This document shows, one piece after another, positions 51,484 through 60,213 of a stretch of DNA of 64,000 nucleotides (positions are counted from its first letter, which is position 1; every line of letters starts with the position of its first letter). Under the pieces are notes generated by a model that had not been told where the DNA came from, ran no database searches, and worked only from the letters and a program-made list of their open reading frames with translations. The translations under genes were made by a program, and so were the position numbers. The stretch lies in the NCBI RefSeq assembly GCF_003334815.1, contig NZ_QOWO01000005.1, one strand, 5' to 3'. Source of the stretch: Escherichia coli (GTDB lineage Bacteria > Pseudomonadota > Gammaproteobacteria > Enterobacterales > Enterobacteriaceae).

Positions 51484-52866
51484 TCAACCTGCCACACTCC
51501 CCCACACCAGTTGCCCTTTATGGAACGTTGCGGTTCTCGGCGAGATACGCGCCACCGCCTCGGCGGAACAGGAGGCGTCCACCAGCACAAAGCTGGCGTC
51601 ATCCTGCGCTTTTGGCCATACACGCTCGCCTTTTTCATTCAGCGGCAATACATCGCCAGTGGCTAAAAACAGCGAGCGGGAGAGGTTCTGTTCGTTAGGA
51701 CGAATATAGAGCTGCGCGTACAGATTGGCTTTTTCCAGCATGTCGCCCAGACCATAAGGCGACCAGTGGTCGATAACGCTGTCAGTGCCAGTCATCACTT
51801 TTACGCCTTTGTCGTGCAACTGTTTGAGCGGCATATGCAGCGTGCCAATCGGCACCGTCGAGGCGATAGAAATTTGTTGCACCACCATCCGGTTCGCCAG
51901 TTCATCTACCTGTTGCTCGTTGAGCGTTGCCAGCGCAAAGGCGTGACTGATGGTCAGCTTGCCCTTCAGCTGTGGCGTTTTCTCTACCGTTTCAACCATA
52001 TAATTGATGGCTGCCACGCCTGCCGGAGTGGTTTCGTGCAGGTGAATATCGACGCCTTTGTCGTAGTCCAGCGCAATCTGGAACATGGTGTCGAGGGATT
52101 TTTCCATCGCGCCATCAACACTGGTCGGGTCCAGGCCGCCGACGTAATGCGCCCCCGCCTGCATCGCTTCACGCATTAAAGGTTCAGATTTCGACAGCAG
52201 CAAACCGTGCTGCGGGAAGGCGACGATTTCACACTCAAAGCCCGCCTGACGTCGCGCCAGCACCGCCTGCAAATTTTGCAGATTTTTCAGGCCGGAAACC
52301 GGTTCGATATTGCAGTGGCTGCGGGCAATGGTGGTGCCTTTCGACTGCAATAAATCAATCAGTTTTTCTGCCCGCTCCTGAGTGTACGGTTGCAGTTCCG
52401 GCAGCATTTTCTGCTCGAGTTTGATCATGTCCTGGATGGTGGTGCCTGCCGGACGATTGAGCGAGCGCCACGGCCCGCCGTAAAAGGTTTTGTCGAGATG
52501 AATATGCATGTCGCGGGTGGTGGGCAGCATCAGCTTACCGCCAGCGTCATAGTGCGGCAGCGTGGCGTCCGGATGCAGCTTGTTCTCGCGCAGGGCGACA
52601 ATTTTGCCGTCCTGAATCTCCACGGTCTGGCGCGCCGTGCGGGTCTGCACCGCCACGCCATTTTCGTAGTCAAAACCGGTTTCCAGCAGCACGTTATCGA
52701 GATAGTAATGCGGGTCAGTGATTTTCATGGTGTTGTTCGCTTCGCAGTTTAGGGTGCCAGCTACCGCCGCATGGGCGAGCGGCACAGAGGTACCAAACAG
52801 CGCGGCGGCGGTGACCATCTTACCGCTCTGGCTCAGAAATTCACGGCGGCTATTGCTTTCTTTCAT
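51484..52866 (-). CDS. yahJ: Amidohydrolase-superfamily deaminase-like protein with twin-arginine signal peptide
   Basis: 460 aa; N-terminus SRREFLSQSGKMVTAAALFGTSVPLAHA (Tat motif); HIHLD metal-binding motif shared with CodA. Confidence 0.85.
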   Translation of the reverse strand: MKESNSRREFLSQSGKMVTAAALFGTSVPLAHAAVAGTLNCEANNTMKITDPHYYLDNVLLETGFDYENGVAVQTRTARQTVEIQDGKIVALRENKLHPDATLPHYDAGGKLMLPTTRDMHIHLDKTFYGGPWRSLNRPAGTTIQDMIKLEQKMLPELQPYTQERAEKLIDLLQSKGTTIARSHCNIEPVSGLKNLQNLQAVLARRQAGFECEIVAFPQHGLLLSKSEPLMREAMQAGAHYVGGLDPTSVDGAMEKSLDTMFQIALDYDKGVDIHLHETTPAGVAAINYMVETVEKTPQLKGKLTISHAFALATLNEQQVDELANRMVVQQISIASTVPIGTLHMPLKQLHDKGVKVMTGTDSVIDHWSPYGLGDMLEKANLYAQLYIRPNEQNLSRSLFLATGDVLPLNEKGERVWPKAQDDASFVLVDASCSAEAVARISPRTATFHKGQLVWGSVAG

Positions 52867-52875
52867 CTTACGTCC

Positions 52876-53826
52876 TTACGTTTTAATAATATGAGTGCCC
52901 GTTTCGCCGCGCAGCGCCGCAGGCAGGCATTCCGGCGTGGTGATAATCACTTCTTTGCCGCCTTGTTCTAAAAATGTCAGGCTGGCGATGATTTTTGGCA
53001 ACATGCTGCCGGGCGGGAAATGCCCTTCCTGCATATAGCGGGTCATGGTGGCAATATCCACCCGATCGAGCGCCTGCTGCTGCGGTTTGCCAAAGTGAAT
53101 ACACACTTTTTCGACGCCAGTGGTGATCACAAGAATGTCGGCGTGAATTTCACGGGCCAGCAGCGCGGTAGAGAGATCTTTGTCGATAACCGCGTCCACG
53201 CTTTGGTAATCTCCCGCGTCAGTACGCACTACCGGAATTCCACCGCCGCCCGCGCCAATTACGACAAAACCTTGTTGGATCAGCGCTTTAATGGCAGGTG
53301 CTTCGACAATACGTTTCGGTTCCGGCGAGGCGACCACGCGGCGATAGCCCCGCCCGGCATCTTCAACAAAACACCAGTCAGGGTTTGCCTTTTGTAATTC
53401 GTCACGCTGGCTGTCACTAAAGAATGCGCCGATGGGCTTGGTGGGATGGGCAAAACCTGGATCGTTTTTATCCACTTCCACCTGAGTCACCACGGTGACG
53501 GCTTTCTTCTCGCCGTGACGCGCCAGCCGGTTATTCAGCGCCTGTTGGATCAGATAGCCGATGCCGCCCTGCGTATCTGCCACACAGTTCGCCAGCGGCG
53601 TTAAGGGCAGCCCTTCGCGCTTGTGGGCAATCTCCGCACGGCGTAAATCCAGCCCGACCTGCGGCCCGTTGCCGTGGGTCAGCACAATGTCGTAATCGGA
53701 AGCCAGCATTTCCAGCACCGTATCGGCGACGGCTTTCACCGCCTCCGCCTGATGCTCAATCGACTGGCTGGCGTTATCTTTGATAATGCTGTTGCCACCA
53801 ATGGCAACGACCACAAGCTCTTTCAT
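52876..53826 (-). CDS. yahI: Carbamate kinase-like protein
   Basis: 316 aa; N-terminal VVVAIGGNSI motif typical of carbamate kinases. Confidence 0.88.
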   Translation of the reverse strand: MKELVVVAIGGNSIIKDNASQSIEHQAEAVKAVADTVLEMLASDYDIVLTHGNGPQVGLDLRRAEIAHKREGLPLTPLANCVADTQGGIGYLIQQALNNRLARHGEKKAVTVVTQVEVDKNDPGFAHPTKPIGAFFSDSQRDELQKANPDWCFVEDAGRGYRRVVASPEPKRIVEAPAIKALIQQGFVVIGAGGGGIPVVRTDAGDYQSVDAVIDKDLSTALLAREIHADILVITTGVEKVCIHFGKPQQQALDRVDIATMTRYMQEGHFPPGSMLPKIIASLTFLEQGGKEVIITTPECLPAALRGETGTHIIKT

Positions 53827-53873
53827 GTTGTTATGTCCGCTACAGAGGGTGATGGGGTTATGACCAACGCCAG

Positions 53874-53958
53874 AATGCCTGATGCGCTACGCTTATCAGG
53901 CCTACAGATTCTTGCGCCATTCGTAGGCCGGATAAGGCGTTCACGCCGCATCCGGCAT
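53874..53958. repeat. BIME/REP palindromes between yahG and yahI
   Basis: gcctgatgcgctacgcttatcaggcctacag...gtaggccggataaggcgttcacgccgcatccggcatgaac. Confidence 0.8.
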
Positions 53959-58434: not shown

Positions 58435-58691
58435 TCACATTCCCCTGGTTTTTGTGGCTGTTTTCGATGAATTGAGAATAGCAACGATAATCTGATAAAA
58501 GAACCCGCTTAAATTTAATTCGCCGTATCTCGCCTTTTTGTTGAATAATATTCAACAATCTTTTCGCAGTGTGCGGTAGTGCAATATTTGTTTCTTTGAC
58601 CCGATACCCTTTCACTCAATCAGGTTTTATTTCTCTATAGTCTGCACATGTAAGAGTAGCTTTCGTCCATGTCTAACCAGAGGGGAACAAG

Positions 58692-59189
58692 ATGAACGGA
58701 CTCACGGCAACGGGTGTCACCGTCGGTATTTGTGCAGGGCTTTGGCAGTTAGTGTCTTCACATGTCGGGCTCTCTCAAGGATGGGAATTATTAGGAACCA
58801 TTGGCTTCGTCGCCTTTTGCAGTTTTTATGCCGCAGGCGGCGGTAAATCGGGGTTTATCAGAAGTCTGGCGGTTAATTATTCCGGGATGGTGTGGGCGTT
58901 TTTCGCCGCGCTGACTGCTGGTTGGCTGGCCTCTGTAAGTGGACTGTCCGCGTTCTGGGCGAGCGTAATTACTACCGTACCCTTCTCGGCGGTAGTGGTC
59001 TGGCAAGGGCGTTTCTGGTTACTGTCCTTTATTCCCGGTGGCTTTCTCGGCATGACGCTGTTTTTTGCCAGCGGGATGAACTGGACGGTGACGTTACTGG
59101 GTTTTCTGGCGGGTAACTGCGTGGGGGTAATTTCAGAATATGGTGGACAAAAATTAAGCGAAGCGACGACTAAACGCGACGGGTATTAA
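58692..59189 (+). CDS. yahC: DUF1097 inner-membrane protein
   Basis: 165 aa hydrophobic ORF. Confidence 0.8.
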   Translation: MNGLTATGVTVGICAGLWQLVSSHVGLSQGWELLGTIGFVAFCSFYAAGGGKSGFIRSLAVNYSGMVWAFFAALTAGWLASVSGLSAFWASVITTVPFSAVVVWQGRFWLLSFIPGGFLGMTLFFASGMNWTVTLLGFLAGNCVGVISEYGGQKLSEATTKRDGY

Positions 59190-59280
59190 AAGTTATTCAA
59201 AAATGATTATCTATCTTTAACCGATACCTCTACAGTCATAGCTGGAGAAATTCATAGTAGATAATGGCGAGAATGGTTTA

Positions 59281-60213
59281 ATGAACTCAATTTTTACCGA
59301 AGAGAATCTGTTGGCATTTACTACCGCTGCGCGTTTTGGCAGCTTCAGTAAAGCCGCAGAAGAGTTGGGTTTAACCACTTCCGCCATTAGCTACACCATT
59401 AAGCGTATGGAGACGGGGCTGGATGTGGTGCTGTTCACTCGCAGTACCCGCAGCATTGAGTTAACGGAGTCCGGGCGTTATTTTTTCCGCAAAGCTACCG
59501 ACCTGCTGAATGATTTTTATGCCATCAAACGCAGTATCGATACTATTTCGCAGGGCATAGAAGCGCGTGTGCGCATTTGTATTAATCAGCTGCTTTATAC
59601 GCCCAAACACACCGCACGCTTGTTACAGGTGCTGAAAAAGCAGTTTCCTACCTGCCAGATTACCGTCACCACCGAAGTGTATAACGGCGTCTGGGATGCG
59701 ATTATTAATAATCAGGCCAATATCGCCATCGGCGCACCCGATACACTACTGGACGGCGGCGGTATTGATTACACTGAAATTGGCGCGATTCGCTGGGCTT
59801 TTGCTATCGCCCCGGATCACCCGTTAGCCTTTGTGCCGGAACCCATCGCCGAAAGCCAACTGCGTCTCTACCCTAATATTATGGTGGAGGACACCGCGCA
59901 TACGATTAATAAAAAAGTGGGCTGGTTGCTGCACGGGCAGGAGTCAATTCTGGTGCCAGATTTCAACACCAAATGTCAGTGCCAGATTTTAGGTGAAGGA
60001 ATTGGTTTTTTGCCGGATTACATGGTCCGTGAGGCGATGACGCAATCCCTGCTGGTTACCCGACAAATCCATAATCCGCGCCAGGATTCGCGCATGTTAC
60101 TGGCGACTCAGCATTCTGCTACGGGTCAGGTGACGCAGTGGATTAAAAAACAATTTGCGCCAAATGGCATATTAACGGGGATCTATCAGGATTTACTGCA
60201 TCGGGAGAATTAA
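59281..60213 (+). CDS. yahB: LysR-family transcriptional regulator
   Basis: 310 aa; N-terminal HTH (AARFGSFSKAAEELGLTTSAISYTIKRMETGL). Confidence 0.85.
   Translation: MNSIFTEENLLAFTTAARFGSFSKAAEELGLTTSAISYTIKRMETGLDVVLFTRSTRSIELTESGRYFFRKATDLLNDFYAIKRSIDTISQGIEARVRICINQLLYTPKHTARLLQVLKKQFPTCQITVTTEVYNGVWDAIINNQANIAIGAPDTLLDGGGIDYTEIGAIRWAFAIAPDHPLAFVPEPIAESQLRLYPNIMVEDTAHTINKKVGWLLHGQESILVPDFNTKCQCQILGEGIGFLPDYMVREAMTQSLLVTRQIHNPRQDSRMLLATQHSATGQVTQWIKKQFAPNGILTGIYQDLLHREN

Follow-up and report, generated by a model that had tools for sequence, protein, structure and literature searches.

The uncharacterised yahB-yahJ gene cluster of Escherichia coli, a sister of the oxalurate-splitting enzyme of allantoin breakdown

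Relatives of the genes considered here lie in the allantoin region of E. coli K-12, which carries fdrA-ylbE-ylbF-ybcF. AllFGH was shown in 2024 to be an oxamic transcarbamylase (PMC11326118), and YbcF (AllK) is a catabolic carbamate kinase (PMC9843812). Older work on Streptococcus faecalis, as far as it is cited in PMC11326118, described an oxamate transcarbamylase together with a carbamate kinase that was the third of its kind, induced by oxalurate or parabanic acid. Deletion mutants (delta-allF, delta-allG and delta-allFGH) of E. coli MG1655, in which yahDEFG is intact, made 0 mM oxamate from allantoin (PMC11326118). The yah genes were possibly just uninduced in that experiment. The yahB-yahJ cluster itself is a known, functionally uncharacterised E. 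coli gene cluster and a sister of this oxalurate-splitting enzyme of allantoin breakdown. The literature searched named it only as uncharacterised (PMC11551758), apart from one yahJ mutant phenotype, a mild competitive defect in mice (PMC7549933), and gave no enzyme activity or inducer for the yah proteins, which counts against the pathway that is favoured below.

Layout of the cluster and its paralogy with the allantoin genes

The window analysed was a stretch of 64,000 nucleotides of E. coli DNA (contig NZ_QOWO01000005.1), of which the region 51484-60213 was 99.9-100% identical to annotated E. coli chromosomes. All eight yah genes were found in this region in the orientations given by the initial annotation, with yahJ, yahI, yahG, yahF, yahE and yahD on the minus strand and yahC and yahB divergently on the plus strand, and the domain assignments made there held, the NCBIfam, Pfam and RefSeq product names being concordant. 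Two corrections apply: yahG as sequenced carries a +1 frameshift, and the spacer between yahG and yahI consists of REP elements. The seven other ORFs have the K-12 length. The features of the region are as follows.

51484-52866, minus strand: yahJ, Tat-exported aminohydrolase of the CodA/AtzC clade (460 aa)
52876-53826, minus strand: yahI, carbamate kinase family protein (316 aa)
53827-53969, no strand: REP-element spacer between yahG and yahI, 'yahH' region (143 bp)
53970-55389, minus strand: yahG, AllG/DUF1116 family, frameshifted (ORFs 54802-55389 and 53970-54842)
54874-54880, minus strand: A7 homopolymer, frameshift site in yahG
55389-56936, minus strand: yahF, AllF/FdrA family, related to succinyl-CoA synthetase alpha (515 aa)
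56926-57789, minus strand: yahE, AllH/DUF2877 family, fast-evolving accessory subunit (287 aa)
57829-58434, minus strand: yahD, cytoplasmic ankyrin-repeat protein (201 aa)
58435-58691, no strand: divergent yahD/yahC control region
58692-59189, plus strand: yahC, DUF1097 membrane protein (165 aa)
59281-60213, plus strand: yahB, LysR-type regulator of the AllS/PunR clade (310 aa)

The frameshift is due to an extra base in the A-run (A7 compared with A6 in K-12, in strain PEC1009 and in every other E. coli genome examined) and divides yahG into ORFs of 195 aa (54802-55389) and 290 aa (53970-54842). Of 5,426 complete E. coli genomes, 4,757 gave a match to an 80-nt probe spanning this site, and an exact match to the A7 allele was found in none of these 4,757; the A7 run is therefore either a mutation private to this strain or a sequencing error in the homopolymer. 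Should the sequence be right, the proposed pathway would be interrupted in the sequenced strain. The lesion might also be taken as a sign that the E. coli cluster is a cryptic, decaying remnant with its genes out of use, in line with the loss of a permease gene from the Escherichia-type operon, where REP elements stand in its place, and with the listing of the genes as uncharacterised and without a reported inducing condition (PMC11551758). We regard such decay as improbable, since the cluster is near-core (about 92% of the 5,426 complete genomes), its putative promoter and operator are conserved with species holding the full operon, the absence of the frameshift allele from 4,757 genomes points to a private lesion or an error and not to a trend, and the yahJ mutant has a small competitive defect in vivo (PMC7549933). 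Within Escherichia dN/dS is low, at 0.02-0.08 for YahB, YahC, YahD, YahF, YahG, YahI and YahJ, which likewise speaks against decay. A range of 0.06-0.15 was also obtained for YahC, and one of 0.19-0.29 for YahE; the cluster is under purifying selection.

The initial annotation had stated that genes of these families occur together in the allantoin region and are linked to oxamate/oxalurate carbamoyl transfer; this was right, and the link is by now experimental for both AllFGH (PMC11326118) and AllK (PMC9843812). Its further suggestion of a paralogous system for another compound gains support from the separate YahG clade, the differing gene company and the failure of the yah genes to back up the AllFGH reaction, which follows from the 0 mM oxamate of the MG1655 all mutants (PMC11326118). 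Pairwise alignment by BLASTP gave identities of 38% for YahF and AllF (2e-101), 45% for YahG and AllG (5e-120), 25% for YahE and AllH (2e-10) and 38% for YahI and AllK (5e-57), and the regulator YahB is 39% identical to AllS.

Conserved core, subunits and transport

The G subunits of the yah type form a clade of their own, being at least 66% identical across Proteobacteria and Firmicutes (66-90% from E. coli to Brevibacillus, Bosea, Avibacterium and PDB 3CLQ, the last of which we take to be from Enterococcus faecalis) and only 44-49% identical to AllG and to the clade linked with AtzD or BiuH. A relative is encoded in at least 475 species-representative genomes. The company kept across phyla consists of an ankyrin or Ank-TPR protein, an AllF-like and an AllG-like protein, usually an AllH-like protein, a carbamate kinase, a regulator of the LysR or PucR family and, for transport, an AzgA-like permease, an NCS1 permease similar to allantoin permease, or both. 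The ankyrin protein, a 200-aa protein or an Ank-TPR fusion, is present in nearly all yah-type loci and absent from all-, AtzD- and BiuH-type loci, and is a hallmark of the yah-type systems.

For YahD the ankyrin profiles matched, as did PDB 5D66 (2.3e-40). YahF scored 487.7 bits against NCBIfam PRK06091 (cut-off 433) and matched PDB 3DMY (FdrA) at 4.9e-82, and the stop of yahF overlaps the start of yahG, the product of which has 472 aa when intact, as in K-12. The last 45 residues of AllF have their homologous counterpart at the N-terminus of YahG, an arrangement that speaks for a complex of F and G. YahE matched Pfam PF11392 (AllH) at 2.5e-28 with an invariant GxGxGLTPSxDD motif, and its AlphaFold model (pLDDT 93.8) had no solved structural relative; yahE is missing from 21 of 71 complete species loci, and its absence from the Enterobacter clade makes the subunit composition uncertain. 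YahI scored 648.9 bits against NCBIfam PRK12352 (cut-off 266), and 346.2 against the arcC equivalog TIGR00746, just below the cut-off of 358.25.

It is very improbable that YahF is instead an acyl-CoA synthetase, with the cluster serving to activate or degrade a carboxylic acid by way of its CoA thioester and the homologue of carbamate kinase having some other role. The RefSeq product name ('acyl-CoA synthetase FdrA') and the resemblance to succinyl-CoA synthetase alpha (E 1e-10 to 2e-16) point that way, but the similarity spans only residues ~68-230 of the latter and ends before the phosphohistidine loop (His246 of SucD in E. coli), there is no gene for an ATP-grasp beta subunit in the vicinity, and nearly all loci have a linked carbamate kinase gene. 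FdrA/AllF, from which the name derives, is moreover experimentally a transcarbamylase subunit (PMC11326118).

A permease gene (~515 aa) lies between yahG and yahI in 55 of the 71 loci. The Escherichia lineage has yahC in its stead (Pfam PF06496, 6.5e-27), and the spacer at this position consists of REP elements and is longer by 92 bases in K-12. The yahC gene occurs in exactly the 16 permease-less loci and is absent from the 55 with a permease; this exclusivity probably reflects a single evolutionary event, as YahG is at least 94% identical to that of E. coli in all yahC-type loci and at most 93% identical in all permease-type loci. YahC is a candidate replacement for the lost permease.

The gene company also bears on the proposal that the cluster catalyses the AllFGH reaction itself (oxalurate + Pi -> oxamate + carbamoyl phosphate) on exogenous oxalurate or precursors such as parabanic acid, with YahJ releasing or processing these compounds in the periplasm and the permease taking them up. 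All subunits come from the same families as AllFGH; PucR regulators, the allantoin permease-like permease and an allantoinase (locus L102) tie yah-type loci to purine and ureide catabolism, PDB 3CLQ is of the yah type (70% identical to YahG, 46% to AllG), and the S. faecalis enzyme, as far as it is cited in PMC11326118, fits as well. We nevertheless consider this proposal unlikely, given that the all mutants make no oxamate despite intact yahDEFG (PMC11326118), that the yah-type clade has long been separate and is strongly conserved, and that neither the extra ankyrin subunit nor the recurring deaminases have an obvious role in oxalurate use.

Deaminases, regulation and the proposed pathway

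YahJ scored 712.7 bits against NCBIfam PRK06846 (cut-off 447), and the solved structures closest to it are those of AtzC (6NBO, 1.9e-43, and 2QT3), followed by cytosine deaminase. Its motifs (SRREFL at residues 6-11, AHA|A at 31-34, HxH at 121-123, HxxE at 275-278, SH at 307-308 and GTD at 360-362) align with the CodA encoded in the same window, all catalytic motifs of CodA being kept, and the twin-arginine motif is retained in 81 of 82 YahJ orthologues. The initial annotation had placed YahJ at the centre of the cluster together with the carbamate kinase; the conserved core instead comprises ankyrin-(E)-F-G, the permease and the carbamate kinase. Only about half of the diverse non-enterobacterial yah-type loci have a deaminase, and YahJ also occurs without the rest of the cluster, for example in Shewanella and Xenorhabdus, which weakens the case for its place in the same pathway. 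Where the slot is filled, three non-homologous kinds were found: the YahJ type, a cytosolic PRK05985 amidohydrolase (Bosea) and a CDA-fold enzyme closest to guanine deaminase of B. subtilis, which in one enterobacterial-type operon (L163) replaces YahJ. YahJ is an exchangeable feeder enzyme.

The best NCBIfam matches of YahB were AllS (267.1 bits) and PunR (237.7 bits), both under the equivalog cut-offs, and yahB adjoins the operon in all complete enterobacterial loci. The control region holds the palindrome TTGTTGAATA-T-TATTCAACAA at 58538-58558 (one occurrence in the window, with 0 expected by chance), a conserved TTGCACTACCGCACA at 58570-58584 and, on the minus strand, an extended -10-like element, TGcTATTCT, at 58475-58483. 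Conservation of these blocks upstream of yahD extends from E. coli to Aeromonas and Janthinobacterium, and they are a putative YahB operator and promoter.

Set beside hundreds of other bacteria, the cluster is a distinct module of wide conservation, which probably yields ATP and ammonia from a nitrogen compound resembling a nucleobase. We lean towards reading yahDEFGIJ with the divergent yahC-yahB as the form that a widespread catabolic module of the yah type, producing carbamoyl phosphate, takes in Escherichia. For the biochemical steps, their order and the class of substrate we infer the following scheme, which would run from deamination through uptake and phosphorolytic release of carbamoyl phosphate to ATP. 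In the periplasm the Tat-exported YahJ would act on an external compound of the nucleobase kind and remove its exocyclic amino or alkylamino group, and the product would be imported by the AzgA-like permease in most species and perhaps by YahC in Escherichia, Kluyvera and Raoultella, which lack the permease gene. In the cytoplasm a complex of YahF and YahG, joined by the ankyrin protein YahD and by YahE as an accessory subunit, would use phosphate to split a ureido or acyl-urea intermediate, yielding carbamoyl phosphate, from which, with ADP, YahI would form ATP, NH3 and CO2. The AllS/PunR-like YahB would activate the operon from the conserved palindromic operator. If YahJ only deaminates a ring compound, the operon is without a ring-opening step, which speaks against this scheme; an allantoinase-like gene stands beside a few divergent loci only (L102/L109). 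Genes for other AllFG paralogues have as neighbours those for cyanuric acid hydrolase or for hydrolases of the BiuH type, together with nucleobase permeases and a carbamate kinase, and such neighbours fit a family that splits acyl-ureas derived from N-heterocycles.

Comparison with known systems

With AllFGH and AllK the cluster shares the families FdrA/AllF, DUF1116/AllG and DUF2877/AllH; in both systems a carbamate kinase is linked to these, and the LysR activators AllS and YahB are related. The identities are 25-45%. It differs in the separate clade of its G subunit, the extra conserved ankyrin subunit, a ~45-residue segment that is carried by YahG and not, as in the all system, by AllF, a dedicated nucleobase-type permease or YahC, the exchangeable deaminase, the lack of a link to allantoin genes and the lack of an oxamate back-up in all mutants.

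The likeness to the arginine and agmatine deiminase pathways would be functional and not one of family membership: an amino or imino nitrogen is hydrolysed off, phosphorolysis of a ureido compound yields carbamoyl phosphate, which carbamate kinase converts to ATP, and a dedicated transporter is present. The carbamate kinase is the sole homologue; the yah transcarbamylase is of the AllFGH type and not of the OTCase fold, and the deaminase is a metal-dependent amidohydrolase or CDA-fold enzyme, periplasmic in enterobacteria.

YahJ resembles AtzC (N-isopropylammelide isopropylaminohydrolase; 1.9e-43) and CodA (~1e-16 to 7e-20), with the HxH, HxxE, His, Asp and substrate-binding Gln positions of CodA aligned, whereas a Tat signal, an N-terminal extension and an NCBIfam subfamily of its own (PRK06846) set it apart, and its identity to CodA is only 26%.

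The AllFG clusters linked to AtzD or BiuH (plasmids L092 and L093, Avibacterium L095 and nitrifier loci in PMC12625717) likewise combine AllF-, AllG- and AllH-like genes with a carbamate kinase, a nucleobase permease and a LysR regulator, and adjoin an enzyme producing an acyl-urea; they differ from the yah-type loci in a third clade of G subunits (44-49% identical to YahG), in the absence of an ankyrin protein and in their feeder enzyme.

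Gene content and prevalence of the yah cluster

The window consists of E. coli DNA, and positions 51484-60213 were 99.9-100% identical to annotated chromosomes including that of K-12 (BLAST). The gene map in the initial annotation was reproduced by the ORF list with the exception of yahG, which is frameshifted here and not one intact gene:

51484-52866, minus strand: yahJ
52876-53826, minus strand: yahI
53970-54842 and 54802-55389: yahG, split into two overlapping-frame ORFs
55389-56936, minus strand: yahF
56926-57789, minus strand: yahE
57829-58434, minus strand: yahD
58692-59189, plus strand: yahC
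59281-60213, plus strand: yahB

According to the alignment, the yahG break is one extra base in a homopolymer (A7 at 54874-54880 versus A6 in K-12 and PEC1009). An 80-nt probe spanning this site matched 4,757 of 5,426 complete E. coli genomes, and since the A7 allele was found as an exact match in none of the 4,757 genomes carrying the segment, it is either a private lesion or a homopolymer sequencing error. The spacer between yahG and yahI (53827-53969, 143 bp) is made up of REP elements, and its K-12 counterpart is 92 bases longer. These elements inflated a whole-region BLAST search to 167,002 places and saturated the per-record limit, so that the first count of cluster carriers (3,061/5,426 genomes, 56%) was an artefactual undercount and was discarded. 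With REP-free probes yahJ-yahI was found in 5,036 and yahG-yahD in 5,006 of the 5,426 complete genomes, and the cluster is near-core in E. coli. yahI and yahJ lie 9 bases apart in the window; in some E. coli assemblies YahI and YahJ are fused in ORFs of 677-780 aa (proteins P0003-P0005 and P0008).

Relationship of the yah proteins to the allantoin locus

Work published in 2024 identified AllFGH as the oxamic transcarbamylase that had long been looked for (oxalurate + Pi <-> oxamate + carbamoyl phosphate; PMC11326118), and AllK/YbcF is a catabolic carbamate kinase (PMC11326118, PMC9843812); the yah genes go unmentioned in both papers. A 2024 survey placed yahC, E, G, H, I, and J among dense clusters of uncharacterized genes (PMC11551758), and YahJ is among the predicted Tat substrates, its deletion causing a small competitive defect in mice (PMC7549933). 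Our literature search for yah function found no paper assigning one, and matches to yahF in a gemcitabine-resistance study were incidental.

The pairwise alignments by which the initial annotation had proposed to check its suggested paralogy with the K-12 allantoin locus bear it out and extend it to the regulator. The BLASTP identities were 38% over 513 residues for YahF and AllF (E 2e-101), 45% for YahG (K-12 allele) and AllG (E 5e-120), 25% for YahE and AllH (E 2e-10), 38% for YahI and AllK (E 5e-57), and 39% for YahB and AllS (E 9e-73). YahF scored 487.7 bits against the NCBIfam FdrA model PRK06091 (cut-off 433) and has the HMA_AllF_N, CoA_binding, and Ligase_CoA architecture of an F subunit, these Pfam domains being recorded on its orthologs; its annotation as an acyl-CoA synthetase is a legacy name. 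The domain expected of a G subunit, PF06545 (AllG), is recorded on YahG orthologs, and that of an H subunit, PF11392 (now named AllH), was matched by YahE at 2.5e-28. YahI scored 648.9 bits against the carbamate-kinase subfamily PRK12352 (cut-off 266) and 346.2 against the arcC equivalog TIGR00746, just under its cut-off of 358.25. The top NCBIfam matches of YahB were AllS (267.1 bits, under the equivalog cut-off of 372) and PunR (237.7 bits, below 345), and by these scores YahB is classified as an AllS paralog and not as AllS itself. YahC belongs to Pfam DUF1097. Newer RefSeq records already call the yahG and yahE products "AllG/AllH family" proteins, so the yah/all paralogy had been recognized before; the locus itself is a known one, and databases already record the families to which its proteins belong.

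The all and yah systems divide the F and G genes at different points. The last ~45 residues of AllF align with YahG residues 11-53 (score 67 versus 23 +/- 4 for shuffles, maximum 42), the homologous segments being 31560-31701 in the compared locus L003 and the yahG 5' end at 55230-55360 of the window. Such a displaced boundary speaks for F and G forming a physical complex. Structures have been solved of FdrA (3DMY), of YahD-like ankyrin proteins (5D66, 3HRA), and of a G subunit of the yah type (3CLQ). The predicted model of YahE (pLDDT 93.8) has an N-terminal beta domain and a helical C-terminal domain with an invariant GxGxGLTPSxDD motif; structural comparison with this model gave no solved relative.

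The pairwise identity matrix separated three clades of G subunits, namely the yah-type, a clade linked to AtzD/BiuH-like hydrolases, and AllG, with 44-49% identity between them. Within the yah-type clade identities were 66-90% among E. coli, Aeromonas, Morganella, Janthinobacterium, Bosea, Avibacterium, Brevibacillus, Cytobacillus, and PDB 3CLQ, and YahG shows exceptional conservation, the E. coli protein sharing 76-79% identity with those of Brevibacillus and Janthinobacterium. YahG falls outside the AllG clade in this matrix and is thus no ortholog of AllG; orthology would have made a shared oxalurate/oxamate substrate probable. The strongest rival reading is that the yah core is a second oxamic transcarbamylase, acting on exogenous oxalurate or parabanate. 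It is opposed by MG1655 lacking allF or allG, which with yah intact makes no oxamate from allantoin, although absent induction of yah could explain the missing oxamate. The separate G clade and the differing gene company of yah-type loci support the idea, put forward in the initial annotation, of a paralogous system for another ureido or carbamoyl compound.

Third-clade AllF/G/H-like genes were located in three compared loci:

L092, 3737-11378
L093, 5813-13026
L095, 12752-19721

One Citrobacter plasmid encodes AllH/F/G-like proteins together with an NCS2 permease, a LysR regulator, a carbamate kinase, and a cyanuric acid hydrolase that matches the AtzD equivalog at 580 bits. On an E. coli plasmid and in Avibacterium, the neighbors of the AllF/G-like and carbamate kinase genes encode a CodB-like permease, a BiuH-like hydrolase, and the C-terminal domain of an allophanate hydrolase. 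Given these neighborhoods, the AllFG family seems to specialize in the phosphorolysis of acyl-ureas derived from N-heterocycles, each paralog having its own feeder enzyme and permease. A similar co-location with biuret/triuret genes is known from nitrifiers (PMC12625717). In Avibacterium the third-clade set directly adjoins a yah-type set, and one carbamate kinase is common to both.

Composition and genomic context of yah-type loci

Relatives were identified in at least 475 species-representative genomes, from which the best 80 loci were kept, and a metagenome scan contributed 80 further loci; both sets were annotated by tblastn. The recurring yah-type set comprises genes for an ankyrin protein, AllH-, AllF-, and AllG-like subunits, a permease, a carbamate kinase, and a LysR or PucR regulator. 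The ankyrin protein, either YahD-like (~200 aa) or an Ank-TPR fusion (~400 aa), was present in 18 of the 19 diverse loci having enough flanking DNA, and none was found in all-type, AtzD-type, or BiuH-type loci. A first point added by the present analysis is that the yah-type module stands apart as a variant of its own, distributed across phyla (Proteobacteria, Firmicutes) and accompanied by an apparently obligatory ankyrin partner. The permease (~515 aa) gave no match in Pfam and NCBIfam searches and was assigned to the AzgA-like family from its NCBI and JGI names (xanthine or AzgA-family permease) and at least 11 hydrophobic segments; an NCS1 permease resembling allantoin permease sometimes occurs beside it or in its place. 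ORF clustering of 26 diverse metagenome loci revealed no further unannotated neighbor recurring beyond closely related contigs. Spot annotation of loci L102 and L109 identified an allantoinase and an M24 hydrolase, and assorted transporters were also found. The metagenome scan for the source locus of PDB 3CLQ retrieved only relatives at <=75% identity. In Enterococcus faecalis, EF0377 (ankyrin, PDB 3HRA) and EF0378 (amidohydrolase) are induced in insects and mice (PMC2912369); their membership in a yah-type cluster was unsupported. EF0379/EF0380 is a toxin-antitoxin pair (PMC7701990).

A second yah-type operon is carried by conjugative plasmids of E. coli and Klebsiella (68 plasmid records in the 90-95% band; ~120 plasmid places among complete genomes). 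In the E. coli IncF plasmid NZ_CP083889.1 (L091, 4632-13071) it comprises LysR, ankyrin, E, F, G, permease, and carbamate kinase genes without yahJ, and the plasmid and chromosomal YahG share 90% identity. In two Pseudocitrobacter loci (L014 and L015) YahF, G, I, and J share 95-98% identity with their E. coli counterparts, but the values are lower for YahD (70-71%), YahE (56-58%), and YahC (71-73%), a mosaic suggestive of recombination or transfer whose breakpoint lies between yahE and yahF.

The 71 complete loci from enterobacteria and Aeromonas fall into two groups: in 55 a permease gene lies between yahG and yahI and yahC is absent, and in 16 (Escherichia, Pseudocitrobacter, Kluyvera, Raoultella, and a few others) yahC is present without the permease; no locus has both or neither. 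Since the YahG of all yahC-type loci is closest to that of E. coli, the swap was probably a single evolutionary event. That the Escherichia lineage has yahC in exchange for a nucleobase-type permease is a second point added here. YahC is under purifying selection (dN/dS 0.06-0.15). yahE is absent from 21 of the 71 loci (Enterobacter, Leclercia, Lelliottia, Silvania, Aeromonas), and YahE evolves fastest everywhere (dN/dS 0.19-0.29 versus 0.02-0.08 for the other members), both of which are consistent with the report that allFG without allH still makes some oxamate (PMC11326118). The possibility that the cluster is a decaying remnant is contradicted by these dN/dS values and by its prevalence (~5,000/5,426 genomes).

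Blocks upstream of yahD, which in Escherichia are separated from yahB by yahC, are kept from E. coli to Aeromonas and Janthinobacterium:

58538-58558: perfect LysR-type palindrome TTGTTGAATA-T-TATTCAACAA
58570-58584: block TTGCACTACCGCACA (TTGCAC...CGCACA), upstream of the palindrome and conserved across Enterobacterales
upstream of yahD: TGcTATTCT element

A sigma-70 consensus scan of this region found nothing, and on cross-species conservation only we interpret the blocks as a putative YahB operator and an extended -10 promoter of yahD. The TTGCACTACCGCACA block may be the site of a second regulator or part of the divergent yahC/yahB promoter.

YahJ matched the NCBIfam amidohydrolase subfamily PRK06846 (712.7 bits) and, more weakly, cytosine deaminases; its top solved relatives were AtzC and then cytosine deaminase. 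Its export via Tat is predicted from SRREFL at residues 6-11, a hydrophobic stretch, and an AxA site (AHA|A at 31-34), and the RR motif is present in 81 of 82 orthologs. The window also encodes a cytosine deaminase:

about 36900-38100 (~36.9-38.1 kb), minus strand: codA

YahJ is 26% identical to this CodA with the HxH, HxxE, SH, and GxD motifs in register: MHIHLD, IHLHE, ISH, and GTD of YahJ align with HIHLD, VHCDE, SH, and GHD of CodA. The metal/catalytic set of CodA/AtzC-type mononuclear aminohydrolases (HxH, HxxE, a conserved His, and an Asp) is present, and the FPQ substrate-binding glutamine of CodA is also in register. We take the roles of the aligned residues to be those of CodA, and from superfamily knowledge the motif signature presumably indicates removal of an exocyclic amine and not ring opening.

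Three kinds of deaminase accompany yah-type loci: the predicted Tat-exported YahJ type, a cytosolic PRK05985 amidohydrolase in Bosea, and a 150-aa CDA-fold enzyme in Brevibacillus and several metagenome loci, whose top solved relative is B. subtilis guanine deaminase. In the metagenome contig L163 (258-10885) an enterobacterial-type yahB/yahDEFG-permease-yahI operon has a second permease and the CDA-fold enzyme in place of YahJ. No deaminase was found in about half of the diverse loci, and YahJ occurs on its own in Shewanella and Xenorhabdus, so that the deaminase appears as a feeder step and not as part of the core. Its interchangeability is the third point added by the present analysis. The initial annotation had described the cluster as built around a carbamate kinase and an amidohydrolase: the kinase is indeed recurrent, whereas YahJ is a feeder.

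Putative pathway and comparison with known systems

From the family assignments, conservation, and motifs observed we infer all reactions of the following model. YahJ would deaminate an external amino-heterocycle in the periplasm, and the product would be taken up by the permease or, in Escherichia, possibly by YahC. YahD/E/F/G would then release carbamoyl phosphate from a ureide or acyl-urea intermediate, as the linkage to a carbamate kinase suggests, and YahI would use it to form ATP. The main gap in the model is ring opening, which might be spontaneous in the deaminated product, might be carried out by another enzyme, or might be dispensable if the compound on which the core really acts is linear to begin with.

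As a tentative proposal, to which we give somewhat less than even credence, the yah-type loci would encode a fourth kind of phosphorolytic system, multi-subunit and ankyrin-containing, yielding ATP and ammonia from a nucleobase-derived ureide, with DUF1097/YahC as its transporter and the ankyrin protein as an obligatory subunit. Ankyrin proteins are rare in bacteria as obligatory enzyme subunits. Candidate sources of the ureide are guanine/xanthine-like, triazine-like, or oxidized purine rings.

Few blocks of uncharacterized genes left in E. coli K-12 are as dense as the yah genes, which are near-core in the species. Should the model be correct, it would add a route of substrate-level phosphorylation fed by a nitrogen heterocycle, define which substrates the newly recognized AllFGH enzyme family handles (to our knowledge only one member has been characterized), and provide the first functional hypotheses for three orphan families, namely bacterial cytoplasmic ankyrin proteins, DUF1097, and the AllH fold. 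Comparison across species narrows the candidate substrates to nucleobase-like rings with amino substituents and the ureides formed from them, and points to species with complete operons (Citrobacter, Enterobacter, Providencia, Brevibacillus) as better experimental hosts than K-12. Knowledge of the ankyrin partner, the permease/yahC swap, and the interchangeable deaminase opens the old problem of the yah substrate to direct test.

By family assignment a deaminase (absent from about half of the diverse loci), a catabolic transcarbamylase, a carbamate kinase, and a transporter are all represented. The set may parallel that of deiminase-type (ADI/AgDI-like) ATP-yielding pathways, the reaction order and the substrate in the yah system being those presumed in the model.
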